The notes under the pieces were generated by a model. The model was given only the letters and a program-made list of their open reading frames with translations. It did not search any database and was not told where the DNA came from. A program made the translations under genes and the position numbers. Shown piece after piece: positions 5,065-41,900 of a stretch of DNA of 45,222 nt (the first letter of the stretch is position 1; each line of letters starts with the position of its first letter). The DNA comes from Schmidtea nova (taxonomy: Eukaryota). The stretch is taken from contig CM097883.1 in NCBI GenBank assembly GCA_044892505.1, forward strand, positions 315,146,001 through 315,191,222, read 5' to 3'.

Positions 5065-5965
5065 TATTATTACAAGTGATATTTCAAATCCCTAGACTCT
5101 TAAAATGAATTAAAATATTTCTTTATTTAAACTAATTTATTACCAAATATTCATATAAAAATATTAAACATTTTTATATACTTTATGCAGTAATTTAATT
5201 ATTTATCCTTGTCGGTATCGTAAAATCTATACATTTTACTGTAATATGACTTATAAAATATCATGTAATTGTTATTAATAATTAATTATGTTAAAATATT
5301 AAATTTTATAAATTCTTTACTTAATTTTATTTATTAAATGATCAATTAATTATTAATTATAATTCACACCAAATTATAATTATTCTTTCATAAATTATTC
5401 TAAATTAAAGAAAACTTTGTTAAATAATTATTTAGTTTTTCAATCTTTGATATAATTTCTAAAATATTTTTTTTGACAAAAATGTAATAATGGATTAACA
5501 TTTAGTTAAAACTGCAAAGAATACATCAAAATCTCCTGTGATATTAATTTTTTATTACAAATTCATAAACATTCATTACTATCGTTTTACCAGAATATAT
5601 TGAATATTTTACATTGTTTTTTAGACATTGTAGTAAGTAACAATAAATCTCATCAAAATGATAATAAAGCAAAAGTAAATTGTTTTATTATCCTAACTAA
5701 TTGATAAAAACTTATTGAATTTCTTTCAAGTACTGATGATTCTTCATATTTTATCATTAATCTATACCAAACTTTATCGATAATTTACACATTATTTATT
5801 ACGTTCACTAATACACATGCAACTTGATTGTAAAAGATTTTAATCCAAGAAAATAACGACAATATAATAAATTTATCAAGAAAACGTTTATAGCATTGAA
5901 ATTGTACTAAATATTTAATTCTGACCGGACTGAAACAAATTATCGAATCACAAAAATAGATTTTA

Positions 5966-7029: not shown

Positions 7030-7032
<3 letters not shown>

Positions 7033-7084
<52 letters not shown>
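7033..7084. repeat. (AT)n microsatellite
   Basis: About 26 AT units right next to the transposon end. Confidence 0.95.
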
Positions 7085-7086
<2 letters not shown>

Positions 7087-7283
7087 CATTTATTCATCTT
7101 CATTTTAGTTTAATATCTTTTAAATATATCACAATTTTATTTTAGATAGTGTTGGGTTGTGGATGGGTTAAATAAAATTATTCTAGGGACTCCTCTATCC
7201 ATACCCACATATAAAATGCATACGTTACACACACGCATCCTCGACTGTTTCCCTGGATAGTCGAGTTGGAAATGTGCAAGGTT

Positions 7284-8799: not shown

Positions 8800-8802
8800 T
8801 TA

Positions 8803-8812
8803 CCCCCCATCC
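8803..8812 (-). promoter_or_regulatory. Polypurine tract
   Basis: Minus strand GGATGGGGGG, 3 nt upstream of the 3' LTR TG. Confidence 0.8.
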
Positions 8813-8880
8813 AGTAACGCGGAGCGTTTTTCTTAAAAAAAAAAATTTTTAGAAGTGTTAGTATTGGTGCTCGCCCTAAG

Positions 8881-11800: not shown

Positions 11801-12320
11801 TGTTTGTGATTGTTTGATCTCTTTTCGACGTTTGGAAATGTCTTTAGTAATTGTTGTATATAGCAAGGTGTGGCGGGTAAGACATTGAGAGCGTCGCTAC
11901 AGAGGTGGTCAAGAACTTGAGCTCTAGGTGTGTGTTGTGAGAGGATTAATTTGCGTTCTCTGCAATCAGGGAGTAAACCTTCAGCATCAAGAAAATCGGC
12001 ACCTAAGAGTGGATGAATCACCTCGGCGACTTGGAATGTCCATGAAAAAGTTTTAGACAGACCAGGAATTTGGAATATTAAGTTTTTGGTTCCAATAGTG
12101 GAAAAGTTTTCGCCACTGGCTGTCCGGAAAGACATTTTTTGATTATTATCAATTCCGAACCGATTAGGTAGGAATGAAATGATAGAGCCGCTATCGATAA
12201 CGAAGTGAATGGGGGCATCGACTTCGTTAGAGTTCTGGGAATGAGGTACGGCGGAAACAGAAAAGAGTCCACAGGTTATGGGATCGCCATCAAAAACTGT
12301 GGGGGAGTTCGATGGCGTCT
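8881..12320 (-). pseudogene. pol: pol (protease-RT-RNase H-integrase), broken by two frameshifts
   Basis: PR FVIDSGS; RT WASPIHVV, LDLKKAYHQI, MPFGLRNA, YIDD; IN HHCC, VHVD, TDQG, NGAVER. About 41 nt deleted near 11460, 1 nt deleted near 9803, and RNase H TDAS changed to TYVS near 10893. Confidence 0.95.
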
Positions 12321-13307
12321 TCAGTTTTCCGAAGACTTATTATATGAATTTTGATTAACGTTACTGGTATTGTGATTACCAGTATGGAAACGGCAGCCTT
12401 CCAAGCATGTTTTGGCCTCGGTCTTAAATATTGCGTGATAGATGCAAAGGTTGCGAGGCAGGCATGTTGGAAGTCGGTTGTTCCACCTACAACCGACATA
12501 GCAATGTTGGGCTTTGTCTCCATACGTCTTATGGTAGGAGCATATGAGCCCTCGTGCAGACGTGGACCGATGTCGTTTTTGATTGTTGTCACGACTGTCT
12601 GTTCGACTTCGACCTCGGGTGTGTAGACTTGCGTCTAAATTGTCCATCCTCGATGTTAAAGCAGCTATGGCGCTGACTAGGGCTCCGAATTCGGCGTGTG
12701 GGAGGCTTGTTGTTGCGACTACTGGTGATGGAGTATCGGGTGACGTGTTGATTTCCACGATCTTGTCGGCAATTTTGGCCAGTTCTTCCAATGTTGTGTT
12801 TGGAACAACGGCCAGAATGGACTGGGCTGATGTAGGTAGTGCTTTTAGAAAGAACCTACGGAGCAGAGCGTCGTCTTTGGTAAGACCAGCCTGGATCCTT
12901 TCGAGTTGTTCCTTGGCTCGCTTGAGGAAGGCGCTTGGTCTTTCATTATTGAGGGGTTGATTTCGGAACCAAGCCTCATATAAATGGTCTAATTTTGGTC
13001 GGTAGGCGTCTAGCACTGCCGATTTCAGTGAGTTGTAGGGCTCACTTGCCGTGGCTGCGGTTGCAATGGCGGTGGACAATGTGGTGTAAATAGTGCTTGG
13101 AAGCATGGACAAGAGTGCACCAAACTTCTGCCCTTGAGATTGAGTGGGTAGAAAGGTTGGAGTCACTTCTAGTGCCAGGAACCACGTTTGTGGGGAGCCA
13201 ACGCCGTCTAGGAAAAACGGTATTGGGGTAATAACTGGTGTTGTTTGTTGTGTTGGCGGTTGTATGTGACTGATTTCACAGTCTGTGTTAGTCTCATCAG
13301 TTTGCAT
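12321..13307 (-). CDS. gag: Gag (about 328 aa from MQTDE; the frame stays open upstream to 14033)
   Basis: PFFLDG..PQTWF...KF..L..LP...PY..LK..VL capsid-like region; two CxYH..(F/Y)..xA..C...C knuckles; ends at TCG GAA AAC TGA with pol in the -1 frame. Confidence 0.9.
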   Translation of the reverse strand: MQTDETNTDCEISHIQPPTQQTTPVITPIPFFLDGVGSPQTWFLALEVTPTFLPTQSQGQKFGALLSMLPSTIYTTLSTAIATAATASEPYNSLKSAVLDAYRPKLDHLYEAWFRNQPLNNERPSAFLKRAKEQLERIQAGLTKDDALLRRFFLKALPTSAQSILAVVPNTTLEELAKIADKIVEINTSPDTPSPVVATTSLPHAEFGALVSAIAALTSRMDNLDASLHTRGRSRTDSRDNNQKRHRSTSARGLICSYHKTYGDKAQHCYVGCRWNNRLPTCLPRNLCIYHAIFKTEAKTCLEGCRFHTGNHNTSNVNQNSYNKSSEN

Positions 13308-13702
13308 TCCTCCAGTCAAACGGGGAACGATGTCGAAATAGGTGGTGATGACTGGGGTATGTGTCGCAGATTGGGACTTCTTGACAAAGAAGTGGCGGTG
13401 TGTTTCTCTTGGGACACCAATTGCTAGGAGCAATGAAGACATTGAGGACAATTGTGACTTCGTCGGAAACAGAGGTTGCCATCCGGAAGTCTTGTTAGGA
13501 CACCGGAAGAGAAATTTGTGTGATACTTGCGTCCTCTCAATGTTTAAAAACCCGTTTGTTCTTATGATGTGGTTTCCATGTACCTTCAATATAGTTAGTC
13601 CCGCCCAGGATTGTAGCGCCTTCATTTGGGAAGGAATAGGAAAAATAATAAATGTGGGAATATAATAATATAAAATATAAATGTTACTGGAGGGAGGGAG
13701 TA

Positions 13703-13715
13703 ACTTCTGACACCA
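13703..13715 (-). promoter_or_regulatory. Primer-binding site, probably tRNA-Leu
   Basis: TGGTGTCAGAAGT, 3 nt downstream of the 5' LTR; complementary to the 3' end of eukaryotic tRNA-Leu(CAA), ACUUCUGACACCA. Confidence 0.85.
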
Positions 13716-13718
13716 ATT

Positions 13719-15234
13719 TGATGAACCGGAAACCACACCAAGGTATTCTGATTTTTGGCGTGGTTGCCGATTCATTAATTTTATATTTGTTCCCTCGCTT
13801 ATCATTTTACATAAGCTTACAAATAAATCTAAATATACTTTTGTTTTCGAATGTCTGTAGTTGGTATTCAGCTTACGGCAATTTGTTAACATATACTCAG
13901 TCATGCCAAATAGCAGGGAAAGAAGAATTCCAGGCCGAACCAAAGATCGATCGAAATCATCGGGTAATCCCCCAAGGAGGATCTCATAAGGAGGTTCCAC
14001 TGCCGGCTTGCTTATTAGAAAGTACTTGTCCAATCACTCGGATCGTGTAGATATAATTGTCAGAAAATGTAATATTTATTTGATAACCAGTTTCTATATA
14101 AATCTTAATTGTATCACTTTTCTTTATTAATTGATTGAAAGAGACATTGAAAAATCTGTAAAATTTAAGAATAAGATTGGAAACATAACACCAAGTTTTG
14201 GAAATGTCTGTGAAAATATCAAACATGCAGTTTACCAAAATTTCATGAATAAAAATAAAAGGAGGTCTCAAAGATTGAATAACCATATAAAAATGATACA
14301 CACATGGATTTGATTGTATAGCATGATAAACCATTTTTCTATTACTAAACTTTCATCAGTATCTTTCCACCTTACCGGATAAAAATAATTGAAATTAGAA
14401 TGATGAAATTCAGGAAACACTCCAAAGTCATACGATATAATATACAATTTAATGAATGACAAAATGCATGGGAAATCAATTTTTGGATTCTGGACAAAAA
14501 CTTCATTTGTGAAGATATTGTATGCGCATGGTGAGGAGCAATTTATTTGAGTACCTTTAAATAGTTCTCTCGATCTTGGAATAATTAGATCTAAATGTTT
14601 TTTAAAATAAAATCCTTGCTCATTAAAGCTAACTAAGCAGCGGCATGTAATACTTGATTTTACCCAGGACGTGCTTGCCTTCGAAAACCTTCCTCTGACA
14701 TTAAAGTGATATGATATATAGTTTATTCTATCAATCAGAAAGTTTACGATTACGACGGAGTCTTTGAGAGCAACCCAATGTAGGAGCGACAGATCCGTAC
14801 CTTCCGTAATGATTATTTTTACTTCTATCGGATCTAGGAACTCTACTGATCTTTCGAATCTCGCGTCATCATCTGCGATAATATATGCGAACCATAAACG
14901 TCGCTTTGCTGATTCTTCTATATATTCTTCATTCAACATTTTATTCAAATGATATTTCGGTAATCTATATTTGATATTATAATATATTTTTAAATTAGAA
15001 TTTAAAAAGTCGAATTTCAAGCGATTTCAAATATTTATTTTATATTATCGTGCGGGTTAACCGCTTAACAACCTCTTTTAACAAAACATACAATGTTGAA
15101 ATTATAAAATTTTTACATATATAACAATTTTTTTACAACCTTAATTTACATAATTTTAAATATACATGAGACACGAATAAACATTTATTTATGTTAAAAA
15201 TTCATATCCAAACGTGTGTCCACAGAACATTACA
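13719..15234 (-). repeat. 5' LTR (1516 bp)
   Basis: Direct repeat of 7284-8799. Confidence 0.95.
14268..14939 (-). CDS. LTR-internal ORF with ankyrin-like motif, 5' LTR copy
   Basis: Protein identical to that of 7833-8504. Confidence 0.4.
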   Translation of the reverse strand: MLNEEYIEESAKRRLWFAYIIADDDARFERSVEFLDPIEVKIIITEGTDLSLLHWVALKDSVVIVNFLIDRINYISYHFNVRGRFSKASTSWVKSSITCRCLVSFNEQGFYFKKHLDLIIPRSRELFKGTQINCSSPCAYNIFTNEVFVQNPKIDFPCILSFIKLYIISYDFGVFPEFHHSNFNYFYPVRWKDTDESLVIEKWFIMLYNQIHVCIIFIWLFNL

Positions 15235-20753: not shown

Positions 20754-23700
20754 TTATAAAATAATTTTCACTAAGCACTTGACAGTGAATTTATCAGCCA
20801 CAAGTGATGCAGGTGAAGGTGAATATTCGAGAATTTTAACATCTCCAGAATAGCAACCGTTATAAGTAATAATTTGTTTATTACTGACAGAAAATTCTTG
20901 CGTTGCCTCATTCCAAATTCCCAGAGTAATATCTAATTTGACAGGATATATTTGATAACTGTTATATGTTCCATAGACCAGTGATATAGAAATATTATAA
21001 TAGCTATATTCACAATCTACCTCAATTTGTAATTTGTATCCATTCGGATGGGTATAAAATTCATCACTTCGTACTGTCATTTTCGTACTGTCAATCTTAC
21101 AAACTTCAAATTTGAATTCTTTAGCAAACGTATTAAAAATTTGATTCAATTGCAGTTTCATATCTACAATTTCTTTTGCCTGTTTATCCAAGGCGGATTT
21201 CAATGCCTGCTGCTGAGTGACCTTGATGGAATTAGCAAATGTTACCAATAAATCCGTTTCTCACTTGAATATTTTTTAGCTTATCATTTATATCGTTCTT
21301 TTCTCGTTGAAGCTTTTCCAACTGTGTCTGCAATTATTCAGTAATTAATTGCTAAAAATTCAAAAGAAATGTTTTGATTAAATGGCTTTATTCCACGCAT
21401 CCTGTTTGAATCACAGTATTAAAAATTAATAATGTAAAACAAATTTAAATTTCACATAAAAAATTCAAGATAATAACAGCCACTTCTATTTTTTATTATA
21501 ACTAAAAAAAAATTTTTTCGCATTAGCTGTACATTTTGAATTCTTTTACGGTCCGCTAATGTGCCGCGGCACACAGTTTCTGTACCACTGTTTTAGATTA
21601 TAGACTAAATTCTTTCAATTAATCATAAATTTTCAGAACTTTTACAATGGTTATTCTATTCAGGATCAAATAACTGCCGTCACCAAGTGTTTTTATCCGT
21701 GATTAGTCTTCGTTGGTAAGTTAATGTATGCTGATATGAAGAATTATTGGTAGAGCACCTCGAAATTTGTAACATTCCTTGTGAGCGGCATGAGATTGAA
21801 AATTCTTTTAGCTCAATAGTTTAGTAAGTTGTAACTGAAATTTTAATGTAAATGAAATTTGAAGAACTTTTTTTCACAACGCCTACGCTAATGTAAGTAA
21901 ACATAAATTTTTCATGAATAATTAAAAATAAATATTTTTTTAAAAAATGCGGTTAGTCATTAATTAATTATGATAATAAAAATAAATTAAAGTTTACATT
22001 GAAAATCTCGCGGCTTTATAGTGTTTTAGGATTTTCAAACATGGCTTTCCATAGATAAAGCTTTGAGCACACCTGATATAACACATAACAAGAGATTTCA
22101 CAAAGCATAAATAATTTGAGCTATCAAGATTAATCCTTTGGTAAAATACATTTAATATATGTTGGGTATGCTATTAGAAACTGCATTGAATATCACATTA
22201 GAAACTTTATTTCAATCTGTGAGTCAACCGAAAACCAAAAAACAACAATTTGAATCTAAATATTAATAACTATTATAGCATCACATTTATAAAATGCTAC
22301 TCTCTGTCTGTCCATTCCAAAAATTATTATTTATTGATTATTAAAATTATTTTTATTGATTCAAAAATACATTTGGGATATTTACCATTTATATTTGGGC
22401 ATTTTCTGCAGGTTTTAAAATCTTGCATGTCTTATAATGCTCAATAATTTAATCCTTGAAACAGGTGTTGCTGTAAAGGGTATGAATGATGGTATTGGTA
22501 GTAATAATAATAATGAAACAAATAAAAATATTGTGAATGATAGCACGGGTTCCGTTTAGGTTTTATGATTTGAATATATCCAAACCACAAAACCGGGGTT
22601 TTCCGTTTTATCTAAAAATACGTAGAAAAAGAAAAGTTTTTGAACGGGAAGAGAATAATCATCAACATCTGTAAGGGATTAAATTTTGTTCATCATTGAA
22701 AGGATATTTATAGCAAGGCCGGGGTTTTTCGCTTCAACTTTCGGAATATTACATAATTTCATTGGAAGGTCAAAAGGATCAAAAACCGGGTCTGAAATAT
22801 TATAATTATAAGACTTAATTCTATTAAATTTCACCCCCTTGTATTTTAAAATTACCAAAATATTTTATATATAAAACACAAGTTATCGGTACAAGTTACC
22901 AGTACAATGTTTTTTATTTAATGATGCTGGGGTTGAACAAGAACCTTTGCCACTTAATCGTCTTATTTGTGAATATTTTGTAATTTTAAAGCTTATTTCT
23001 TTAATTTTATTAATTGACCAATTGCTGCCATTTTCGGAGACTAGTATTTTTTCACTTAATAGAGCAATACCATCTAAAAAGGTATTATTTATGGGTTTTG
23101 CGGAATTTCATATTATAAAAGATTGAAATTGCCCATCTTTTTCAAATTCTTCATCAGTGCAGAATTGTACTTTTTCATATTCCATTTCAGAAATGACTGA
23201 ATTAAATTTATTTACTAAAGATGGAGGGATAATTAATTAATTTAAATTTAAAGAATTCACATCCATTTTTACAATGGCATGGGAATTTAAACATCATCAT
23301 TTGGTGAATGAACATCTTCATCGGAAATTATAATTATTTTAGCCTGTTTAGGACAATCAGTAACAGTTCGTCGTTTATTTGTACTAATTAATGTGAAGAC
23401 TTTTTAGTGGATGAGAATTGATTTAAATGGAGATAATCTTGAAAATAAAAATCAATATGTTATATTTTGGGCACTCTTACATGTGGGACACAAAAAAGTG
23501 ACTTGGTTATTTATAAGACGATAGTATCATTCCATTAATTTGTGGCAGTCGTTATGATTTGACGAATTACAATAATTCGGATAAAAATTACCTTAAATAT
23601 AAAATGTCTTTAAATTTATCAAAAAATCATTAAAAAAATTAATAAAAATATGAATTATTAGAAAATAAATATGAAATATAAAATAAATATTATTTAAATA

Positions 23701-24342
23701 TAATAATTACATAAAATAGTTTTAATTTTAATTTAATATTATTCATAATATTTAGTTTATTCATAATTAAATTACTTTTTCATTATTTTTTTCTTCCAGT
23801 AACGATTTTATTTCGTTCTTCAGAGACTGATTTTCTGCAGTGATTTCATCGACTTTCGAAGTCAAAAGTTGCAAATGTTTATCTTTATCGGATGTCATAT
23901 GATTATACAAACCCGATCCGTCGACAGTCATTTGATCGCATCCATAATTTGTATATAGACATTTGATTGATGATTTCTGACAGCCAATAATGTGCTGCTC
24001 AATGTCCTTTATGCATTCCTCGTATGGACACATTGCTGTTAAACATCTGACTTTAGTATTCGCTATTTTTCGATTGATAACGTGATCAATCCACACATTT
24101 GTGTCTTTACTCAATTGTTCTTCGTGACACTCATTGCCTTTACCGGGGCAGAATTTATTATTTTGTGCCAAATAACCACTAATGCATTGATGACAAAACC
24201 GACAAGAACATGGGCAAATTCTAGCATCAATTATCAATTTCATACACAGTCCACATATTAGCTCCTGTGGCAACTGTCTAACAACTTCAAACTCATGATT
24301 TTTCATAAATTTCCAAATTTTTTCATAGTTCCCTTGACTCAT
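20754..24342 (-). CDS. Host TRAF-like protein (RING, TRAF zinc fingers, coiled coil, MATH); exons 24342-23776, 21327-21265, 21221-20754; about 365 aa
   Basis: RING CGLC...CPCSCRFCHQC...CP; zinc fingers C...C...H...C; MATH SDEFYTHPNGYK...SL..G.Y...YP...ITL. GT-AG phase-0 junctions keep the frame; the 43-nt intron has GTGAG and CTAAT. Confidence 0.85.
21561..21590 (-). mobile_element. Possible solo hAT (Charlie-like) terminus
   Basis: Minus strand CAGTGGTACAGAAACTGTGTGCCGCGGCAC resembles Charlie-type ends, and the flank ATCTAAAA fits the nTCTAnAn target preference. No partner end found. Confidence 0.35.
21600..23591 (-). pseudogene. Decayed N-terminal half of a Polinton pPolB inside the TRAF intron
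   Basis: Colinear blocks vs the intact pPolB: NYCNSSNHNDCH..CPTC; VQFCTDEEFEKDGQFQSF..GIALLSEKI..NGSNWSI; DNLCFIY; DPFDLPMKLCNIPKVEAKNPG; AAHKECYKFRGALPIILH. Many stops and frameshifts. Confidence 0.88.
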
Positions 24343-24782
24343 TTTAAATATGTCTGAAAATAAAATTCAGTAAAATATTTTAAATTACGAAAATCGAATT
24401 ATTTTTAAATAATTGCCATTACAACAATTATTATTTATATTTTATAAACACATTTGTAAATCAAATACAATTTTTAACTAACACCAACGCGAAATATAAA
24501 TGATAACTTTATCCATTAATTGGCTCGCTTAGTAATTTCGTTATTTGTAATTTTAAGTTTTAATGCAAATATTTTTAAAATAATAATTTTTTCATTTTAG
24601 TTTATGAATTTATTTAATTATTTAGAAATACAGTCCTCCTCGCTTTAAAAGAACTCGGTTATAAGGGAATTTCTTTTATAAGAGAGAGTTAAAAATACAA
24701 GCATAATTTATTTATATTGAATTAATCAAAACAACATTACCATAATAATATTACTCTAAAGAAAATAAATTAATAATATAAT

Positions 24783-28288: not shown

Positions 28289-29189
28289 ATAATAATATTA
28301 ATTTTTATAATTTCTAATTTATATATAATAATTTTAAATAAAACTAATAATAATAATTTTTGTAACTCCGATTTATAATTATACAACAGTTAAGTGAAAA
28401 TTTTATAATAAAATTTTAAATTTGAATTTTTTATATTATAAGGATATAAATATATATGTAGAATTAAAATTTTTCCCTTAATTTGTATTCTATGGAATTA
28501 ATAGATGAAATAATATTTTATATTAAGATTATAATAATAATTTTATAATATTTCAAATTTATGATTCTGTCAAAGTTATAAAATTTTTATTTTTATAATA
28601 TTGAAGTTTTGAGTTTTAAATTTTATTAATTATTTTTACAGATTTTTTTTCAGTTATTGACTTTATATTATAAATTGTATAATCCCATTTTTTACGTGAT
28701 CATTTATAAATTTTATACCAAATCAAATAAGTAATTTCATGCTAAGATCAAGTATAATAATACACAAAACCCAATATGCAAAATGTAAAAATTAAATTTT
28801 TCATAAATTAAATAAGATAAACATTCATATAAAAGATTAAAAGTTTTTTAATAATATTCTTCGTAAAAATTTTCCACGAGTTCGAGTTCTTTATCTGAAA
28901 TTCATATAAAATCATAACCTTTCAATTAATAATTCGTTGCTCCTTTACATAAATAGTTTTCGATTGAGCATTTTTCCTCGTATTAATTTCATAAATTCCA
29001 ATTTCACATATAGTGGATTTCGAAAAAGTGAGATATTTTGTAAAGGCGAAGGTGAGTGAGAGTCGATTTTATTTAGAAAGACCATACTTATTTTAGATTT
29101 CAAGACATGAGCTGGGTGAGTTGATATTATATGTTGCGATTAACTTATGAGTAGGTAGATGTGTGGAGTCAAACACAAAGAAATGAGTC

Positions 29190-29780
29190 ATAATGCGTGG
29201 GCGGAAAATTTTAAACAAAGAACTTTTTTTTCGGAACCCCCCGGGGGGGGGGTCAATATATTTTTTTTTTTGCGCCAAAAATTTTTGAATTTTTTTTTTC
29301 AAAATTTTTTTTCGCACCAAATTTAAATTTGAAAATTTTTTTTTTAACACAAATTTTTTTAACACAATTTTTTTAAACAAATTTTTTTAACACAAATTTT
29401 TTTTTTAACAAATTTTTTTTTTAACACAAATTTTTTTAACACAAATTTATTTTTTTAACACAAATTTTTTTTTTAACACAAATTTTTTTTTAACACAAAT
29501 TTTTTTTTTTTACAAAATATTTTTTTTTAAAAAAAATTTTTTTTTTTAAACAAAGAACTTTTTTATGCGTGGGCGTAAAATTTTAAACAAAGAACTTTTT
29601 AATGCGTGGGCGTAAAAAATTTTAAACAAAGAACTTTTTCGAGACCCCCCCGGGGGGGCTAAATTTTTTTTTTTTTTTTAAATTATTTTTTCGCGCCAAA
29701 ATTTTTTTAAATTTTTAAAAAATTTTTTTTTTCAATTTTTTTCCCGCCGAATTTATTATTGTAAATTTTTTTTTTTAACA
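29190..29780. repeat. Low-complexity repeat block at the left edge of the Polinton
   Basis: ATGCGTGGGCG.AAAATTTTAAACAAAGAACTTT x3, C-run/G-run palindromes x2, and about 10 copies of AACACAAATTTTT. Confidence 0.8.
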
Positions 29781-29920
29781 TAAAGTATTTCAACAGAAAT
29801 AAGAGTCATCGAAAAGTTTGCAACACGCGTGCAACTGAAACAAAGACAATGCAATACACGTGCAAGACTTTGCAATGCACGTGCAACATGAACAAAGACA
29901 TTGAAAATACAAAATAAAAT

Positions 29921-30502
29921 TTATTTATAAATATATCGTTGTGTACGTGTACAAAATTTAGTTTCAAAATTATTTACATCTGAATTATTACTCGGAATAT
30001 TATTCATAGGAATATTATTCATTGTAATATTATTCATCGGAATACTAGTATTTTTCGGAATATTATTCTTTGGAATATTTGACATCTTCTCCAACCGTAT
30101 GGATGCCGATAATATCATTATAATTATTAATATAAATAAACTTATATAATGTAATACAATGGCTGTTTTTTCATTTTCAACTGTTTGATTTTGGTATCTG
30201 ACTTCATATTCTTTTTTAACAAAAGTTTGATTGATACATTTTAATCGTTCAACTATTTTCATCATTATTTTGGCAATCATTTTTTCAATGTCATTATTAA
30301 TCACATTATTTTTGGAAGGACATTGATTACATTGTAATTTTATTTGACTGCATTCAATGTTTGAGTAAAGACATATATCATTATAACTCGCACAAGCACT
30401 ATATTGTTTTCGAAACGGATGGGATGATTGACAATATTCCAAAGCTTGTTCTCCTTCAGTATTGTGAACACATAATAACAAAATAACTATATTTAATTTC
30501 AT
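29921..30502 (-). CDS. Predicted type I membrane protein (signal peptide, Cys-rich ectodomain, one TM helix, repetitive N/I/P tail)
   Basis: MKLNIVILLLCVH...; seven Cys after the signal; AIVLHYISLFILIIIMILSASI helix; NNIP(M/K) repeats. Confidence 0.7.
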   Translation of the reverse strand: MKLNIVILLLCVHNTEGEQALEYCQSSHPFRKQYSACASYNDICLYSNIECSQIKLQCNQCPSKNNVINNDIEKMIAKIMMKIVERLKCINQTFVKKEYEVRYQNQTVENEKTAIVLHYISLFILIIIMILSASIRLEKMSNIPKNNIPKNTSIPMNNITMNNIPMNNIPSNNSDVNNFETKFCTRTQRYIYK

Positions 30503-30567: not shown

Positions 30568-30984
30568 TTATGCGTATCTTGCATTGTCAACTCTCCAAAT
30601 TGGAGTAACAACATCTTTTTTATCAATCTTGTACCCTTGAATAATAACGGTAACGAACCAGTGTTCTTGATCCATGAAATCAATTGTTTGAAACGCATCA
30701 TGGAACCGAGTTTTTCTGTTATTGATGTACATGGTTTCTTTACAAGATAAATTAACATTCATCTTTGAAAACAATCGATTTAATGTTATAATATCTTCTT
30801 TGGCAATAATTATAGCAAGGCTATCATATAAAGATTTTGTAAACTTTACCGGATAAGATAATCGATACGGTATTTCATTAACCAAAAAATAAATTCGGCT
30901 GTCGTAGTACATCTGGACTGGTTTTACCTCAGTCTGATATATTTTTTCTTCGCTTATATCTAAATTTTGTTTTCTTGAATTCAT
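30568..30984 (-). CDS. Hypothetical 138-aa protein, possibly an OB-fold ssDNA-binding protein
   Basis: Clean ATG ORF. The beta-rich C-terminus FVTVIIQGYKIDKKDVVTPIWRVDNARY recalls T7-like/NCLDV SSBs, judged by eye only. Confidence 0.55.
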   Translation of the reverse strand: MNSRKQNLDISEEKIYQTEVKPVQMYYDSRIYFLVNEIPYRLSYPVKFTKSLYDSLAIIIAKEDIITLNRLFSKMNVNLSCKETMYINNRKTRFHDAFQTIDFMDQEHWFVTVIIQGYKIDKKDVVTPIWRVDNARYA

Positions 30985-31462: not shown

Positions 31463-32066
31463 TTACATATCAGATGGTTCACCACCAAGAGATTGGCAAC
31501 CATCATTATCATCACAATCGTCAAGCTCATGATCACAATCGTCAGCCTTTCGGTGACACTCATCGCAATCAGGTGATTGTGGCGATTCCAATGGTGCATC
31601 TGTCGCTGATGCTTCAATCTCAATTGAATCATCAATCGGTTCGGGGGTTGAATTCAACCATCCTTCTTGTTCCATCTCCTCCTCGATAATCTCCCTCATT
31701 TCTTTTGTTTCGAATTGATTGAGGGTATTTCGGAGAACCCACACTTGTAATTTGCGAATCCTATCCACACAGTGCCCGCATTGATAGGCGCACAATATAT
31801 GTTCGGCCATAAAAGGCAAATCATTGTTCAAATTTTCGAGGTGTTCCTTTAATATCTTATTAACATCTAGTCCCATCAAAACGTGAATTTTGTACGGGAA
31901 CAGCTCCGGTGCTGTATAGGTCAGCGTCTGCATCAGATTGGGGAACATCTCAGCCAGTTTGGTGTAGATGACGGACATGCGTTTTTCTAAAAATAAAATA
32001 TATTAAATTTGAAAATATATTAATTTTATTATTACCATTTTTTAAATTCTTTGTTTTTTGCGACAT
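31463..32066 (-). CDS. Hypothetical protein, two exons (32066-32036 and 31986-31463), CxxCxxC motif and acidic tail
   Basis: A 49-nt GTAAT...TTTAG phase-1 intron (31987-32035) joins MSQKTKNLKN in frame to EKRMSVIY... Confidence 0.65.
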
Positions 32067-32150
32067 AATTGTAGATATAAACTATGTCAGTTTGTGCATA
32101 GTTTATATACGAAACAAACACACATGATTTAGAAAACGATACATAATGAA

Positions 32151-32216
32151 CCAATCAGAATCAAGCATGCACAACATGTCTTTATTCTCGAAATACACAC
32201 AGAGCCAATCAGAATC
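32151..32216. promoter_or_regulatory. Two CCAATCAGAATC (NF-Y-type) boxes upstream of a TATA-like element
   Basis: Exact 12-mers at 32151 and 32205; minus-strand TATATAAAC near 32101-32109. Confidence 0.5.
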
Positions 32217-32244
32217 ATGCATTTCTACTGCATCGATATTGCAG

Positions 32245-32712
32245 TCATGAGTCACATGTTAGTATGAAATCAACAAAGGCTTTATCTTCTATAACTGATT
32301 TTATATCGTTAATAATATCATCAACTATAGTTGAATAATCTTTGTTTTTTAATCCTAATATGACTAATTTCCCACTTGCAAATATATTTACACACATGGG
32401 ATTATATTTGGTATACCTCAAAGCTGGAAATAATTCTGGCTCGTAAACACACGGTATTAATTTAGATAATTCATTCAAATTGCAAATGAATCCTAAATCC
32501 GCAGTTACAGTTATCGATTGAATTTTTAAATCGTAAAACTCAACTTGTTCGTCACTAATGAATTCCCTACATCCCATTATTCTATATCTTCCTGTTTTAA
32601 AGTATATTTTTGGGTATTTCCCACTTCAATCTACAATTTGCTGGGGTTTTCCATTTGGAAATTTCATGTGTGATACATCTGTCTTACCTTTGTAATTAAT
32701 GTTTCTAATCAT
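32245..32712 (-). pseudogene. TATA-binding-protein-like gene with one in-frame TGA
   Basis: YEPELFPALRY...VNIFASGKLVILGLK is the TBP repeat-2 signature. Upstream in frame: MIRNINYKG...IYFKTGRYRIMG (repeat 1), with a stop at 32626-32628. Confidence 0.85.
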
Positions 32713-32806
32713 TACTGAAAATATTTTTAAATGAAATAATTACTTTGAGAACCAGTATTTAAAACAAATATAAACAATAATATTAATTAAATATAATTTT
32801 TTAAAT

Positions 32807-33430
32807 ATGGAATTAAGAAATGATGCAGTATTTCAAATTGTTGGTCCGAGCGGGAGTGGAAAAACTTTATTTGTTTGTAAATTATTGCAATCGAAATTAT
32901 TCAAGTCAAAATTTAATAATATTTATTGGCATAGGGGTGCTGACGACGAAAGTGGAATGACTCAAGATCAGTTTTGTAAAATAAAAATGACAATCATTAA
33001 AGGTTTCGATAAAAACTGGTCATCCAGATTAAAACAAGGTGATGTGATTATCATTGACGACTTGTATCAAGAAGCAAATAAAGAAAAGGATTTCAATAAC
33101 TTATTTACGAAAATCAGTAGACATAAAGGTGTTACTGTTATTTTTATAACTCAGAATTTATTTCATCAGGGCGGTAGTCATCGAACTCGTAATTTAAATG
33201 TTCAATATCTTGTTGTGTTTAAAAATCCTAGAGATGCAACAGTTATTGATTTTCTGGCAAGACAAGCTTATCCTTCTAATCGTAACTTTTTGATTGAAGC
33301 CTTTCAAGATGCTACAAAATCCCCTCATGGATATATTTTCCTGGATTTTACTCAACAATGTAGTGATGATTTACGCGTTAGAACTGATATTTTTAACCCG
33401 GAAGGAGCCATGGTTTATAAACAAAGTTAA
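32807..33430 (+). CDS. A32-like (FtsK-HerA) DNA packaging ATPase
   Basis: Walker A GPSGSGKT, Walker B VIIIDD, SRH arginine finger, IFITQ. Confidence 0.93.
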   Translation: MELRNDAVFQIVGPSGSGKTLFVCKLLQSKLFKSKFNNIYWHRGADDESGMTQDQFCKIKMTIIKGFDKNWSSRLKQGDVIIIDDLYQEANKEKDFNNLFTKISRHKGVTVIFITQNLFHQGGSHRTRNLNVQYLVVFKNPRDATVIDFLARQAYPSNRNFLIEAFQDATKSPHGYIFLDFTQQCSDDLRVRTDIFNPEGAMVYKQS

Positions 33431-33450: not shown

Positions 33451-33990
33451 ATGTTAATGAAATCTCGAGTAAAGTTTGAGCCATTGATAAAGGCTAGAAC
33501 AAAGAAAACAAAGAAACTATTTACAAAGAAATCTATAAAGAAATCAAGAAAGAAATCAAGATCCAAGAAAATAATTATGGATAATATTCCCAAAAATAAT
33601 CAAATTAATTTGAAATCTAATGCTAAACAAGTACATTATCGGAGTTTACCGTTTTTTAATGCATTACTTAAAGCCCCCTCCGTTAGAAGAATGGGTATTC
33701 TTCAATCGTTTCCTAGTTACGTCATCGATGATTTACTCGCTATTTTAATTAAAGTCGTGAGAGGTAAAATGAATCTAACTCCATCTAATCGCCGTGTTTT
33801 GAACAAGCATAAAAAACCATTGTTGTCGCTAGTAAACTCAAAAAATAAAAAACTTATGCGCAAAGTAATATATAAACAACAAGGTGGTTTTATCGCAGCA
33901 TTGTTACCATTAGCATTATCTTTATTGGAGGTGCTGGTTTATTGGGAAAAAGAAAGTCATAAACAATGGGTCAATCATTACCTAATTTAA
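33451..33990 (+). CDS. Basic virion core/membrane-active-type protein; the true C-terminus is probably frameshifted
   Basis: Lys/Arg-rich, with QQGGFIAALLPLAL. The alternative frame gives FIGGAGLLGKRKS* ending at 33962. Confidence 0.65.
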   Translation: MLMKSRVKFEPLIKARTKKTKKLFTKKSIKKSRKKSRSKKIIMDNIPKNNQINLKSNAKQVHYRSLPFFNALLKAPSVRRMGILQSFPSYVIDDLLAILIKVVRGKMNLTPSNRRVLNKHKKPLLSLVNSKNKKLMRKVIYKQQGGFIAALLPLALSLLEVLVYWEKESHKQWVNHYLI

Positions 33991-34017: not shown

Positions 34018-35062
34018 ATGGAGAAGATCTGGACGAACCCAAAAGACGACGCCGGTTTCGGTGGAGTCGAAAAGCTAAGGAAAAAAGCACAGAAGTCGAA
34101 ACAACAGACACAAAGTTGGTTATCGGGGCAACTTGCATACAGTCTAAACAAACCGATGTTGAAACGGTTTCCAACTCGAGCATATAAAACATATAGAATC
34201 AATGATTTGTGGCAAATGGACTTGATGGAAATGATTCCGTATTCCAAAATTAACAAGGGGTACAAGTATATTTTAACATGTATTGATGTTTACAGTCGAT
34301 TTGCTCGAGCAATTGGAGTAAAATCTAAATCTGCTAATGACATGGCAATCGCTATCAAGACAATGATGAAAAAGGATCGGCCAACTAATTTACAAACTGA
34401 TTTGGGTAAAGTTAAATATAATTTTATATATTTATTATTTTTTAGGAAAGGAATTTTACAACAGTAAAGTCAAGGAAGTTATCAAGGGAATAAATCATTA
34501 TTCGGTATTCTCACAATTCAAAGCCGCTCATGTCGAGAGATTTAATCGAACTTTGCGTGATCGATTGAAAAAATACTTTGTTTTTAAAGGCAATAAAACC
34601 TGGATTAATGTCTTACCTAAATTGATTCATAGTTATAATCATAGTGCTCATCGGGGTATAAATGGTAGGAAACCGGCAGAAGTAGTTGATACTGAAAATA
34701 TTGTGAGTGAAGTGAAAGTAAAGAAACCAAAATATAAAGTTGATGATCATGTTCGAATTAGCAAGATTAGTACATCGCCATTCGTTAAAAATTTTGATAA
34801 TAATTGGAGTGATGAGGTATATCAAATATCGAAAGTCAACACAGTGCAGAATCCTGTCATGTATACTATTCGTGACTCTGATAACAATATAATCAGCGGC
34901 AAATTCTACGAACAAGAATTACAAGTTATTCCTCCACCTACGATATTTAGAATTCAAAAGATTTTGAAGACTAAAATGGTGAGTAAGGATAAACAATACT
35001 ATGTCAAATGGCATGGATATAAAGAACCATCATGGATCTCGTCAAAAAATCTAGTAAAGTGA
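34018..35062 (+). CDS. RVE (retroviral-like) integrase with C-terminal chromodomain; exons 34018-34405 and 34446-35062, 334 aa
   Basis: WQMDL, QTDLG|KEFYN restored by removing the 40-nt GT-AG intron 34406-34445, VERFNRTL, YYVKWHGY..PSW. Confidence 0.93.
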
Positions 35063-36075
35063 ATTTTTACACTATTTTACCGAGCAATAGTTGTCCGAAT
35101 ATCCATCCAGATAATACCGCAAGTAAATTCATGGTGAATTTACCTAATCCAATTTATTTAAACGGAAATTGGGAAGTTGCTCTAATGGATTTTACATTTG
35201 TTTACCAACCTTTTCCATATTATAGTTATTGTAAAATTTATTACTATAAAAAGAAAACAATTGTTGCAAATGCATTTTTCTCGATATATAATAATAGTGG
35301 TCATCTGAATGTTCCAACTCACACTATTGATCCGGATATCGAAATGTGGCAACGAGGTGGAAGAATAATTCTCACGTGTAATGTTGTTTCGTATACAATT
35401 ACATTTAATGATCTTGATGTGGCAAAACGAATGGGAAGTAATAATCTGACAATAAAATGTACTGAAGAAGAATGTGAATTCAAAGTTATGCAAAACTTGG
35501 CCAGTAGCGATGAAGAAATAATTACTTTTACTATATCGTATGATCGTCAAGAAGGACATGTATTCACATTCAAGGAGGAGTTGTATATAACGCAACTAGA
35601 TGAATTACAGAAATATATTAGCGATAATTGTTCGAATATTTTTACAGTTGTCGAATTAAATAAATTGTTCAAATTCAAACTCAAAGAAAAAATCACTAAA
35701 GTCCGATTTGATAAATACTTGGTCAATACATTGGGATTAGATAAGGATACATTTACCGATAAAAATATCATTTCTGGTGTTCGTCAACCGAAAATATCTA
35801 AACTTCATCAGCAATTATTCGTGTATACAAACATTATCGAACCCATTATTGTTGGTGATTCCTTGGTTCCTTTACTAAAATCGGTATGGATTGAAAAATA
35901 CGAGCCAGATGAAATTGTTCAAATAGTAATGGATAATCCAATGTATTTATCTGTTTCAACATCCTGTATAAACAATATAGAAATAAATATCCGGGATGAC
36001 AGCGGAAGATTTATAAAATTTCCAAAAGATTCAAAAACTCACTTAACTCTACATTTTCGAAAAAACGATGAGTAA
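35032..36075 (+). CDS. Minor capsid (penton) protein
   Basis: FYTILPSNS...NT.SKF...LP.PI.L.G.WEVAL and LFVYTNIIEP..VGD...PLL...NP.Y..V....INNIEI.IRD are Polinton penton hallmarks. Confidence 0.85.
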   Translation: MDLVKKSSKVNFYTILPSNSCPNIHPDNTASKFMVNLPNPIYLNGNWEVALMDFTFVYQPFPYYSYCKIYYYKKKTIVANAFFSIYNNSGHLNVPTHTIDPDIEMWQRGGRIILTCNVVSYTITFNDLDVAKRMGSNNLTIKCTEEECEFKVMQNLASSDEEIITFTISYDRQEGHVFTFKEELYITQLDELQKYISDNCSNIFTVVELNKLFKFKLKEKITKVRFDKYLVNTLGLDKDTFTDKNIISGVRQPKISKLHQQLFVYTNIIEPIIVGDSLVPLLKSVWIEKYEPDEIVQIVMDNPMYLSVSTSCINNIEINIRDDSGRFIKFPKDSKTHLTLHFRKNDE

Positions 36076-36451
36076 TCCCGATATAGTTTCAATGTACAGT
36101 GATAGCCAAACTGGTGGTGAATTACCGTATTTTGTCGGTAAACAGTATGGATCAGGTTGGTTGAAAACTATTGGGAGATTTGCACTTCCAATTCTTAGAC
36201 GACTAGGTAATTTCGGAATGAATACTGCCAAGGACGTTATCATGAAAGATAATAAAATATTACCGTCATTGAAAACCAACGCTTTGGCCGCAGTTAATAA
36301 AGCTATACCTGCTGTAACTCAAATGCTTCCTACACTTACAAGTATGTTTACAAAAAATAAGGAACCGCAATCTGTACCGGTAGGACCAAGACGTAAACGA
36401 AAGCGTATAAACAAACGAATGAAAGGTCATGGAACTATATTTGAAGAATGA
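36068..36451 (+). CDS. Conserved small Polinton virion protein (Q.G.G plus amphipathic helix, basic tail)
   Basis: KQYGSGWLKTIGRFALPILRRLG...KRKRINKRMKGHG, in the usual position just upstream of the major capsid gene. Confidence 0.7.
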   Translation: MSNPDIVSMYSDSQTGGELPYFVGKQYGSGWLKTIGRFALPILRRLGNFGMNTAKDVIMKDNKILPSLKTNALAAVNKAIPAVTQMLPTLTSMFTKNKEPQSVPVGPRRKRKRINKRMKGHGTIFEE

Positions 36452-37760: not shown

Positions 37761-38138
37761 ATGGAGTAAGATTTTTATTTGATTAATTATTTATTTTTAA
37801 TTAGTTCTATTCAGGTATTAAAACAAGGTAAAAAACTATTGGGAAATCAATTTATTGGAGTATTTCCTCTGGATAAAATACCTTATTTGAAAATGAATCA
37901 AGCCATCATTATAAATACTCAGACATCTACGTTGGGCGGTGAACATTGGATTGCAGTTTACGTGAAACCAGATCGAATACATGTATTTGATCCCTTTGGA
38001 TATTATTATCCGAATTTACTTGTTCGAAAACTACAAACTATTGGTAAACCTATTGTGTATAATAGAATTCGATATCAGCATCCTTTAACAATCACTTGTG
38101 GTGAACATTGCCTTGCATGGTTAAAATCAATGTTATAA
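37761..38138 (+). CDS. Adenain-like cysteine protease; exons 37761-37765 and 37805-38138, 112 aa
   Basis: FIGVFP.D, GEHWIAV, FDPFG, Q......CGEHC. A 39-nt GTAAG...TTAG intron supplies the start MDSIQ. Confidence 0.88.
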
Positions 38139-38170
38139 ACAATTTATTTTAATATATTTTATTTGAAAAA

Positions 38171-38572
38171 ATGTCTTGTTATTTTATCGATTTTTATGGT
38201 TATAATGAAATGGGTGGAACAACAATTAAGGAATTATGTATTATGAATGTTAATAATATTTTCACACCCCAGTATTATATATACAGTGATTTATCTTTCT
38301 GGCCTGATCGTATCGAATCGTTTGAAGGACAAGATTATTTTTGCCCAAAATGTATAATGGATGATATCACAGATAAAGGAGCTATTTTCTATGTTACCGA
38401 TAATGAAAAGATGTATGTTTTGAAGAAGTATTTCTTGAAATTAAGATTAATCAAATATACTTATAAAGAAGTTGAATATGTTCCTGAAAACATTTCATGT
38501 CCCTATAAAGACCATTGTATGTGTGTCTATAAAGGGTGCTTGTCTGCTGTTGTAGATTATTTAAAACAATAA
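38171..38572 (+). CDS. Hypothetical 133-aa protein, possibly a degenerate DnaQ/DEDD-like nuclease with Cys/His motifs
   Basis: YFIDFYG...IKELC at the N-terminus; CPKC and CPYKDHCMC. Confidence 0.55.
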   Translation: MSCYFIDFYGYNEMGGTTIKELCIMNVNNIFTPQYYIYSDLSFWPDRIESFEGQDYFCPKCIMDDITDKGAIFYVTDNEKMYVLKKYFLKLRLIKYTYKEVEYVPENISCPYKDHCMCVYKGCLSAVVDYLKQ

Positions 38573-38827
38573 ATGTATAATGTGATTTTATTATTTTTTA
38601 TTATTATTTTTATAAAATATTATTAATTTTATTATTATTAATATTAAATATTATTATTTTAATCATAAAGACATGACCAGTGCGTGATCAGTGCGTGATA
38701 AGCACATGATGAAACACGTCATATCATGTCTTTGTCACGATACAAAGCAAGTATCGTGACGTCAAACACATAAACAAAGGTACATTATGTGTGCAGTATG
38801 TGTGCATGTATTTGTCTATCCTATCTC

Positions 38828-38875
38828 GATTCTGATTGGTCGGTTAATAAAATTCATCTTTATATAGTATATACT
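38828..38875 (+). promoter_or_regulatory. Reverse CCAAT box and TATA-like element upstream of pPolB
   Basis: GATTCTGATTGG at 38828-38839 (reverse of CCAATCAGAATC); TTTATATAGTATATA near 38859-38873. Confidence 0.5.
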
Positions 38876-38942
38876 TGCATTATTTCGTCACTTTTTACTT
38901 TCAAATTTTCAATCAATTTTTCAAATTCCAATTATTAAAAAT

Positions 38943-41900
38943 ATGCAAAATATCAAGATTTCCAAGGAAAGACATCTCGCTGGAGGTGTTAATGGTAAAT
39001 TTATTATTTTTATTTTTAATTTTATTATTATTATATGCTTTCAGAAATGAATATTGCGCGAAATATCGCTGCTGTTATGATGGGACAAGACGATCAATGG
39101 TCTTCTATGAATGTTGCTCCAAGAATTCGAATTAATGAACATAATGGAATAAGATTTTTAAGTAATATTTTTATTATTATTATTATAATTATTTTACTAT
39201 TTCTTTAGATAATGATTGCAACAATAATAACAACAACAACAACAATGCCGAAGCATCAAGGATGGGTGCATTTTCGTCAATGGGACGAACTAATTGTAAT
39301 TTTATTTATTTATTTTATTAATATTATTTAATTATGAATTTTTTCAGATAATATGATAAATGTGGATATAGATGATGAGGTGCCGAATGACGTTCCGAAT
39401 GTGACTGACGTCCCGAAAGTTGTCCAGAATGATGTCCCGATAAATGCTGTTGTCGCTAATCCGGATGCCCCAATTTATGGGAAGACAAAATGTATGCATT
39501 TATTAGTATTTATTTTTTAATTTAAAATTTTAATTTAAATGATACTTTTTATATATTATTTTTAAATAATTTAGTAATGGTTTGTAAAAACAATTACTAA
39601 ATGATTTAAAAGTATAATATTAAAAGTATTTATATTATGAAATATTGATTTACTTTTTTTTTTTTTGGATAAATAACATTTTTGAAATATAGATTTTTGA
39701 TAAAAAGATACAATTTTGAAACATAATTTTTTATGATGAAATAGTGATTTTTTGATAGATACCATTTTGAAATAGAATTTTATATGATGAAATCTTGATT
39801 TTTGATAGATAACATTTTTGAAATAGTGATTTTTGATAGATACCATTTTGAAATAGAATTTTATATGATGAAATAGTGATTTTTGATAGATACCATTTTG
39901 AAATAGAATTTTATATGATGAAATATTGATTTTTGATAGATAATATTTTTGAAATATTATTTTTATATATACCACTATTTAGTTTATATGATTAAATATT
40001 GTTTTTTGATAAAAAGATACAAATTTGAAATAGAATTTTATATGATGAAATATTGATTTTTGATAGATACCATTTTGAAATAGAATTTTATATGATGAAA
40101 TATTGATTTTTGATAGATACCATTTTTGAAATATTATTTTTATATATGCCACTATTTAGTTTATATGATTAAATATTGTTTTTTGATAAAAAGATACAAT
40201 TTTGAAATAGAATTTTATATGATGAAATATTGATTTTTGATAGATAACATTTTTGAAATATTATTTTTATATATGCCACTATTTAGTTTATATGATTAAA
40301 TATTGATTTTTGATAAAAAGATACAATTTAGAAATAGAATTTTATATGATGAAATATTGATTTTTGAAAAAGATACAATTTTGAAATAGAATTTTATATG
40401 ATGAAATAGTGATTTTTGATAGATACCATTTTGAAATAGAATTTTATATGATGAAATATTGATTTTTGATAGATAACATTTTTGAAATATTATTATTTTT
40501 ATATATATGCCACTATTTACTTTATATGATTTTTGATATAATATTTTCAATTTATTTAAATATTTATTTAAATATTTATTTAAATTCAGGTTCAACCTAC
40601 AAAAATTTTTGCAACAGTAGGTTCCATAATGATTGTCATATCATTATGGAAAAATACTACTCGTTGCCATATAATACTGTTACCCACCTCCTATGCCCCA
40701 CCTGTAAACTTATCGAAATTTGTCCATATATAGACTTCTTTAATAGGCACTGTAGCCATCTTTCACAGTTTCAACCGTCTAAGAAAATTTTATTTAAGGA
40801 ACTTTTTCCTAATTTTATTAATAATCCTATAAATAATACTATAAATAATACTATAAATAATACTATAAATAACAATAATCTAAATAATACTATAAATAAT
40901 ACAAATAATCTAAATAACACTAATAATACAAATAATAATCAAACAAATAATATAAATAATACAAATAATACAAATAATACAAATAATTTAATTAATAATA
41001 ATAATAATAAAAGAAAACATATTAAAATTCCGGATTCAGTTCCTAATAAAATTCAAATAATAGATCTCACTGATGATGAATTAATAGTCATCAGTGATGA
41101 TGAAAATTTAAATAATAATAATATTAATCTAAATAATTTAAATAATTTAAATAATCATAACCAAATCGGATATGGTGCCGTCGAAATCGTCAATGACCTA
41201 AATAACAACCATATAATTATTAAAATGGATGTTGAAAATTTAAATTTGAAAACGGTCTCAGTACCGACAATTCTTTTAGAAAAATTAACTTTTCAAGTCA
41301 ACAAATTAAAAACTGTGAAAATTCAATTCTGTTTGAAGGTGGAATTTGAGAAGGACGATGAATTACAATCGTTCGTTATCTCAAATTCTGTCAGGGTCTG
41401 GAGTGATACCTTCATTGAAGAAGGTATTGCTCTTTTAAATGAAAAAATCATCGCGATAAATGAGAAAGGTAGTAACTGGACTATCTCAAAAGTAGAATAC
41501 ATTAGCTTTGTCTTGACCAGATACTCTGAAATAACTAGATTAAGCGGAAGTCAGTTTATCGAAACTCCGAAATATTTAAGGAAAAAGAAATGTTTAGTAA
41601 ATGTGGTTAATCAGGACAACTTTTGTTTTTTATATAGATTTCTTTCTATAATTAAATATGAGAGTTTAACAAATGAAACTCGTTGCATTCCTTCCTCTTA
41701 TAATCTTTCACATTTGAATTATGACCCCAATGATATGCCTATGAGACTTGGAAATATAAGTAAAGTTGAGAGACAAAACCCAGGTTATAGCATCAATGTT
41801 TTGTCATATGATGAAAATCCCTTATTAGATCTTATTGATGAAAATGAGGATATTGTCCTTAAACATCCTTTTATTGACTTAATTTACAAGTCAAAAGTTG

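Follow-up and report, generated by a model that had tools for sequence, protein, structure and literature searches.

A Polinton-borne TBP-like gene in Schmidtea nova and a variant TATA-like box upstream of Polinton virion genes

The stretch of Schmidtea nova DNA analysed here (45,222 nucleotides, hereafter called the window) carries a Polinton with a TBP-like gene of its own. A preliminary description of the window had claimed as much, and both parts of the claim were borne out, since the element is complete (18,834 bp) and the gene is multi-copy and Polinton-linked. Sequence comparison places the TBP-like family in an old Polinton-linked clade. Virion genes of these elements share a variant TATA-like box, and the reading that we favour, with a probability of roughly 0.6, is that the element-encoded mini-TBP would be a late-gene promoter factor that reads (T)ATAAAC(A/G) and recruits host TFIIB and Pol II.

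The terminal inverted repeats of Polinton/Maverick elements begin with AG and finish with CT. The element displayed such AG..CT repeats together with a 6-bp target duplication (Table 1), its right repeat ending 2,761 bp beyond the end of the window. Pfam matches to DNA_pol_B_2, rve, Pox_A32 and Peptidase_C5 completed the Polinton gene set. The capsid, core and pX labels of Table 1 are putative and follow Polinton gene order, Pfam having matched none of these ORFs. The candidates for the double and single jelly-roll capsid proteins were of fitting size and position and conserved; ORFs 30568-30984 and 38171-38572 had no usable family or Atlas match. Short GT..AG intron-like stretches were seen in the integrase (34406-34445) and protease (about 37767-37815) genes, as well as a multi-exon-looking ORF in 38940-39490. 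Such stretches would fit nuclear Pol II transcription; contigs of four runs covered element genes and spacers alike and were uninformative on transcription and splicing. Spacers 32000-32240 and 38650-38840, the first ahead of the left arm and the second beyond the virion module, contained paired CCAAT boxes and CATG-rich repeats, with ATATAAACTAT on both strands of a spacer inverted repeat (32077 and 32106), and are candidate early control regions.

Table 1. Features of the Polinton in the window (positions are those of the window).
Feature	Position	Strand	Remarks
6-bp target-site duplication	29144..29149	plus	identical 6 bases after the right end, beyond the window (L162:2762-2767)
Left terminal inverted repeat, ~640 bp	29150..29789	plus	607/632 aligned bases identical to the right repeat
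Left-arm ORF	29921..30502	minus	signal-peptide-like start by eye; no Pfam match
Conserved left-arm ORF	30568..30984	minus	neighbours the TBP-like gene in 18/60 metagenome loci
Left-arm ORF, Cys/His cluster and acidic tail	31463..31978	minus	fast-evolving; no family match
TBP-like gene	32245..32712	minus	ATG at 32712, 155 codons and stop; repeat 2 complete, repeat 1 helix-less
Premature TGA, codon 29 of TBP-like gene	32626..32628	minus	window copy broken
TATAAACA box	32769..32776	plus	37 nt before ATPase ATG
Packaging ATPase (Pox_A32-like)	32807..33430	plus	Pfam
TATAAACA box	33416..33423	plus	34 nt before basic core-protein-like ORF
Basic ORF, probably virion core protein	33451..33990	plus	no Pfam match
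Retroviral-type integrase with chromodomain	34021..35062	plus	two frames around a short GT..AG intron-like stretch near 34406-34445
GATAAACA box	34988..34995	plus	43 nt before minor-capsid-like ORF
Minor-capsid-like ORF	35032..36075	plus	no Pfam match; conserved
TATAAACA box	35967..35974	plus	within minor-capsid coding region, 100 nt before next ORF
Small conserved pX-like ORF before major capsid	36068..36451	plus	
TATAAACA box	36406..36413	plus	41 nt before major-capsid-like ORF
Major-capsid-like ORF, 406 aa	36448..37668	plus	no Pfam match; conserved
Adenain-type cysteine protease	37761..38138	plus	Pfam; TATAAATG upstream instead of the variant box
TATAAACA box	38134..38141	plus	36 nt before ORF at 38171
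Conserved small ORF after protease	38171..38572	plus	present in 11/60 metagenome loci; without family match
Protein-primed-type family B DNA polymerase	40463..44497	plus	open frame, stop to stop

The preliminary description had proposed a 155-codon gene with a two-repeat TBP fold, head-to-head with the ATPase and interrupted by a single in-frame TGA. Pfam TBP matched the translated protein with an E of 5e-14, and solved TBPs also matched at the sequence level. The fold was predicted with an X at the stop codon and 42 relatives alongside, and the AlphaFold2 model reached a mean pLDDT of 91.6. Its best structural match was yeast TBP (Z 12.2, 142 residues aligned, rmsd 2.9); among 48,161 chains, the top five matches were all TBPs (Z 12.2-10.2) and the first non-TBP had a Z of 5.9. 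The saddle of two TBP repeats (PF00352) was thus recovered, and the second repeat, described as well kept, contained both YEPELFPAL and IFASGKLVILG. The first repeat was divergent as claimed, and beyond that its strands were kept with neither helix (16 versus 27 residues for the helix-1 region and 17 versus 32 for the helix-2 region). The TGA was found at codon 29, and the start codons of the two facing genes (ATPase ATG at 32807) lie 94 bp apart. Since 148 of the 150 best-scoring genome copies (best 150 of 19,081 candidates) were stop-free, this stop is a defect of the window copy, and function would depend on other copies. An upstream exon was also considered for the gene and rejected, because most relatives share the same start position.

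Intact copies, which the preliminary description had proposed to look for, were readily found. A degenerate 29-base pattern for CVYEPELFPA, run across the genome, yielded 5,858 matches against 0 for the reversed control. Among 59 sampled copies (the first 56 listed places and three chosen for variant codons), 42 displayed a full open 155-codon TBP-like frame and 41 an open ATPase, and all 59 had the head-to-head arrangement. In comparisons across subfamilies, made on 486 non-independent pairs with a dS of 0.3 or more, dN/dS was 0.11 for the TBP-like gene, or 0.10 with singleton codons masked, and 0.06-0.07 for the ATPase. Both repeats were constrained, with pN of 0.032 and 0.027 versus pS of 0.36-0.41. 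A dN/dS of 0.016 from 30 loci was discarded as biased, since these loci had been chosen by protein score.

A clear association was observed between the gene and Polintons. When places were picked by ATPase alone, the TBP-like gene was present in 20/20 of one set and 18/20 of a second, the two misses being a short fragment and a rearranged cluster; no TBP-less autonomous Polinton occurred among 20 ATPase-picked genome places. In one apparent TBP-less exception the gene adjoins the right repeat, and overall it occupies at least three positions within elements. An element found via its capsid gene (L192) also has a TBP-like gene, with 36% identity. Among 60 metagenome loci, 35 carried a homologue of another gene of the window element and 24 a hallmark Polinton gene; those without other element genes were mostly 1-2-kb contigs. 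The preliminary description had held that TBP homologues are not part of the Polinton core. This agrees with vertebrate Mavericks, for which the available part of PMC8097293 gives eight core genes, none named TBP, but it does not apply to the present lineage, where the gene is near-universal. The Polinton load of the genome is very high (10,479 ATPase P-loop motif matches beside the 5,858 TBP-like ones), with nested insertions and several families whose TBP-like proteins are 47-97% identical to that of the window. Polinton contigs L192, L193 and L194 were binned into bacterial genome assemblies, probably as contamination.

Residues were tallied in 159 family rows with yeast TBP numbering. The TFIIB-contact glutamates were near-invariant (E186 in 146/159, E188 in 157/159), and so were three wedging phenylalanines (F116 in 153, F190 in 158 and F207 in 158). 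The fourth, F99, was replaced by proline in 147 rows, so that the four-phenylalanine set of canonical TBPs is incomplete. Changes on the DNA face affected V71 (N, 117/159), V122 (R, 152/159), T124 (M, 156/159), N159 (S/T, 158/159), V161 (T/S, 155/159), I194 (R, 125/159; which we take to be a DNA-contact position) and L205 (N, 158/159), the replacement residues being fixed and mostly polar. Phosphate-binding R196 was lost. The basic patch K133/K138/K145 was not conserved, and helix 2 is absent in the model. According to the available part of PMC12529657, the tallied DNA-face positions other than I194 are TBP DNA contacts (its Table 1). In the accessible portion of PMC7221094, two stirrup glutamates contact TFIIB, and a basic helix-2 patch binds TFIIA, TAF1, Mot1 and Brf. 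In the checks of contact surfaces proposed by the preliminary description, the TFIIB side and three DNA-contacting phenylalanines were therefore kept, while the TFIIA patch and F99 were gone. Conservation of the residues involved predicts TFIIB binding. PMC10005294 (partial text) describes TRF2, which has lost a phenylalanine, as unable to bind TATA.

The sequence ATAAAC was first noticed by reading upstream regions and then counted in non-redundant, homology-anchored regions. In the virion-module set, composed of 56 starts (ATPase, minor capsid, pX, major capsid and post-protease ORF), it occurred 25-110 nt upstream of 53 starts, whereas about 5 were expected from shuffles; these counts are not independent trials, since they were made on the metagenome loci where the motif was noticed, and on elements that share ancestry. 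The reverse strand of these regions had it in 1/56 cases, and TBP-like and left-arm starts were preceded by it in 5/45. Its sense-strand consensus was (T)ATAAAC(A/G), with a preceding T in 45/53 (absent in 8/53) and A/G after, and 40/53 sites lay 31-56 nt from the ATG, with 31-48 nt as the prevailing distance. In a partly held-out check the motif preceded 18/20 separately picked genome ATPases; it was also present in 52/52 sampled copies with a locatable start. Where the box falls within upstream coding sequence, Ile-Asn codons were ATA-AAC in 10/10 and 12/13 cases, against 7% expected. The protease gene, with TATAAATG in place of the variant box, counts against the favoured reading.

Canonical TATAWAWR was found before 15/45 TBP-like and left-arm starts (about 2 expected) and 6/56 virion-module starts. 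The early/late split is only partly visible, since canonical TATA precedes just these 15/45 and is absent at -25 to -60 of the window TBP-like gene. The proposed box differs from host TATA at one position and sits at a TATA-like distance. In TBP, contact with the 3' half of the box, which includes the C, is made by the first repeat; since both repeats are altered, no single residue can be assigned to C preference. In the available part of PMC10005294 (Table 1), C at position 7 is the rarest base, with 2/389 cellular TATA boxes. TBP-DNA crystals with a G-C Hoogsteen pair exist, as far as the partial text of PMC8643651 goes.

In the proposed mechanism, the TBP-like protein would be made early in the cycle of the element and, with its re-tooled DNA face, would bind (T)ATAAAC(A/G) before the virion genes, with a predicted preference for TATAAACA over TATAAAAG. 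Its intact stirrup would then load host TFIIB, followed by Pol II, on late promoters. As the docking surface is missing, it would escape the host regulators TFIIA, TAF1 and Mot1/BTAF1, which stabilise or evict TBP. The preliminary description had suggested that the element redirects or competes for host pre-initiation complexes. Redirection appears better supported from the sequences, because the TFIIB stirrup is kept, the DNA face is remodelled and conserved, and a matching non-canonical motif is shared. Against the mechanism stand the loss of F99 and R196 and the prospect of weak reading of the motif by host TBP, to which the Hoogsteen pairs and the 27% activity in plant protoplasts (see below) point. 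Shared descent could also account for the joint presence of gene and motif, since no autonomous Polinton without the gene was found. We would give even odds to the broader view of a private late-transcription switch in a large animal Polinton clade, where one 150-residue altered-specificity TBP would read TATAAACR, draw on TFIIB and Pol II of the host and go unrecognised by TFIIA, TFIID and Mot1.

The conserved stirrup would also suit a decoy or host shut-off factor that sequesters TFIIB/Brf, host TBP reading TATAAAC weakly, but we hold this to be unlikely. The stirrup is indeed the best-kept surface, F99 and R196 are lost, and TATAAACG kept 27% activity in plant protoplasts, i.e. with plant machinery (available part of PMC10005294). 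Yet near-invariant DNA-facing residues in both repeats would be unneeded by a decoy, and boxes read by the host should drift to A/T at position 7, where C is fixed instead. Moreover, 8/53 boxes also lack the first T, a loss that lowers host-TBP transcription (PMC10005294, Table 5, seen in part), and carrying an outright inhibitor in the germline thousands of times over would presumably be costly.

It is likewise rather improbable that the TBP-like protein acts only within a larger element-encoded complex, in which another ORF or partner would give specificity or polymerase contact. Such a role would find candidate partners in ORFs 30568-30984 (18/60 loci) and 38171-38572 (11/60 loci), both conserved and without known family, and the absence of the helices and of one phenylalanine points to weaker binding by the protein on its own. 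ORF24 of herpesviruses requires partners too, within a six-protein complex (available part of PMC12529657). However, neither candidate ORF is present in all elements, whereas the TBP-like gene almost always is, and host TFIIB could be reached directly through the stirrup, which is retained.

The box itself might have nothing to do with the TBP-like protein, being either a host forkhead-type site or a variant poly(A) signal that belongs to the gene upstream; this we regard as very improbable. The forkhead consensus is RTAAACA, with GTAAACA as its usual variant. ATAAACA fits the former, but GTAAACA was found in 0/52 genome copies and 0/42 metagenome regions, and the reverse orientation in 0/42 metagenome regions. 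As to poly(A) signals, several boxes do lie near the 3' end of the upstream gene. Yet the ATPase box (18/18) has no same-strand gene upstream, given the head-to-head layout, and other boxes lie as far as 100 nt within a coding sequence, where a poly(A) signal would truncate that sequence. The fixed distance between box and ATG argues against both forms.

A first protein search gave 60 matches among 67 candidates, comprising 44 relatives (109-235 residues, 36-73% identity) and 16 ordinary TBPs. A profile search extended this to 773 proteins at E up to 1e-10, the best 150 of which mostly carry the family signature. A quick tree of 96 rows, for which 49/146 family rows were used and named giant-virus TBPs left out, placed 62 family rows together at one end of a long branch (SH-aLRT 100) and separated them from the eukaryotic and archaeal rows and from six rows of the host TBP family. 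The comparison with host TBP called for in the preliminary description thus placed the window protein in a separate Polinton-linked clade. Its grouping with host TBP was rejected (p-AU 3e-57), whereas grouping of the whole family with host TBP was not (p 0.41). The window protein shared 19/62 aligned residues with the intron-bearing host TBP, versus 36-73% identity to its metagenome relatives. A recent, single-copy and unselected host TBP retrocopy, the case that the preliminary description named as its refutation and to which the premature stop of the window copy might point, failed on all three counts and is refuted by copy number (5,858 motif matches), selection (dN/dS about 0.1) and tree placement, the gene being one of the element's own.

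A longer form of the family (160-190 aa; L078, P0116, P0118, P0122 and P0137) displayed near-normal helix-region lengths and the same altered DNA-face residues as the short form, and L078 adjoins a Polinton-type ATPase bearing the same motif. The longer form suggests that a change of specificity preceded truncation. The named relatives of its TFIIB place the host among animals. The host has one canonical intron-bearing TBP, several fast-evolving TBP paralogues and at least two TFIIB-like and two Brf-like loci (L091-L097, L100 and L101). Across the whole genome, TFIIB family PF00382 gave 6 matches, with 25 candidates scored, and no element-borne or multi-copy TFIIB-family gene was detected by this search, which a very divergent TFIIB would escape.

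Among known systems, KSHV ORF24 and EBV BcRF1 represent the late-gene TBP mimic of beta/gammaherpesviruses, which uses a TATT box (PMC12529657, in the part available). The Polinton system resembles it in three ways: a TBP fold with polar residues at positions V122, T124, V161 and L205 (as listed for ORF24 in Table 1 of the accessible text of PMC12529657), a nuclear, DNA virus-like element without a transcribing polymerase of its own, and virion genes behind a one-base TATA variant, a non-canonical box that structural genes share here in 53/56 cases. They differ in that ORF24 is a multi-domain protein of 752 residues that binds Pol II directly and is predicted to be incompatible with TFIIB (same source, partial text), whereas the Polinton protein consists of a single domain of about 150 residues, keeps the stirrup and lacks F99. 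The variant position also differs, i.e. 4 in the herpesvirus TATT and 7 in the Polinton box. BcRF1 gave a weak fold match to the window protein (E 0.02), and membership in the ORF24 family was rejected, the Pol II-binding N-terminal domain being absent from the lone domain.

Nucleocytoviricota TBPs matched the window protein in Foldseek with E from 2e-7 to 7e-4 at 9-22% identity. As in large DNA viruses, the host-regulator patch of the first repeat is not conserved. Large-virus TBPs have, however, diverged at both surfaces and usually come with their own TFIIB (available part of PMC7221094), forming orthogonal pairs with a diverged stirrup, in contrast to the near-invariant glutamates and lack of a multi-copy TFIIB here; an orthogonal TBP-TFIIB system of giant-virus type was therefore rejected, the stirrup being conserved and PF00382, which a very divergent TFIIB would escape, having only 6 genome matches. 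With cellular TBP and its paralogues (TRF2/TBPL1; PF00352) the family shares the saddle fold, the YEPELF stirrup, F116/F190/F207 and N69. It differs from cellular TBPs by the absence of first-repeat helices in the short form, the F99 to P replacement, seven other fixed DNA-face changes and its separate clade on a long stem.

The element itself is typical of Polintons, Mavericks and adintoviruses in its TIRs, 6-bp target duplication, pPolB, integrase, ATPase, protease and capsid-like genes. In the open-access text searched, the only pairing of a Polinton with TBP or the motif was a TBP label in one adintovirus figure legend (PMC8502044 and its preprint), which may or may not concern the same family; the available part of PMC8502044 contains neither an analysis of that gene nor a promoter motif. 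Virus-encoded TBPs that work with variant boxes have a precedent in herpesviruses, on which a single-domain mini-TBP with predicted TFIIB contacts of the host type, carried by a transposon-like virus, would be a new variation.

A dedicated TBP with a matching motif bears on the control of capsid genes in Polintons and on the question of whether these elements keep a true viral cycle; the protein, its predicted site and its predicted partner can all be tested directly. If the proposed mechanism is true, no smaller orthogonal TBP-promoter pair would be known, and this one would have arisen independently of herpesviruses as a second, much simpler origin of their late-promoter strategy. It would mean that these transposons retain an early/late viral programme, that polymerase-less palindromic derivatives (see below) use the TBP-like factor in trans, and that a general transcription factor foreign to the host is present thousands of times in one animal genome. 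Structural work or orthogonal gene control would also gain a naturally occurring TBP of altered specificity. How the host tolerates thousands of copies of a predicted TFIIB-binding factor is a further question raised here.

A palindromic Polinton derivative of about 14 kb was found at G000:C1:17243400-17258399 (L252/L253), with further cases in L254/L255, L256/L257 and L238. It is composed of two 6.85-kb inverted arms, 99.6-99.8% alike, around one central protease. Each arm contains ATPase, core, integrase and capsid-like ORFs, which were open in 5/6 arms read, one minor capsid being split. Polymerase and TBP-like gene are absent, which makes it the one TBP-less form encountered, and every motif box is retained, which fits use of the factor in trans and also fits another reader. 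A 32-base ATPase motif of the palindrome had 148 matches, with many inward-facing pairs about 10.4 kb apart, and the derivative has the appearance of a snap-back element that depends on a helper and is multiplying.

No relatives turned up when IMG/VR was scanned with the TBP-like alignment, the capsid and the ATPase. Three loci from one scan contained a distant ATPase but were virophage-like by eye and too distant to serve as a control; they had no TBP match, and the motif was sporadic in the two with listed ORF starts. In a related metagenome element (L041:225-719), a ubiquitin-conjugating (E2) enzyme gene is located behind the same motif.

Outside the Polinton, the window contains a second polymerase C-terminal fragment (4000-5100), with TATAAACAAT at 4021-4030 on the minus strand, and, in 5950-7040, 110-bp inverted repeats that enclose a transposase-like ORF. 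A Ty3/Gypsy-like retroelement occupies 7130-15030 (minus), with gag-, RT- and integrase-like frames recognised by eye and long direct repeats lying 6,435 bp apart on either side. Pieces of a host TRAF-like gene (RING, TRAF zinc finger and MATH domain) were observed at 20754-24366 (minus).
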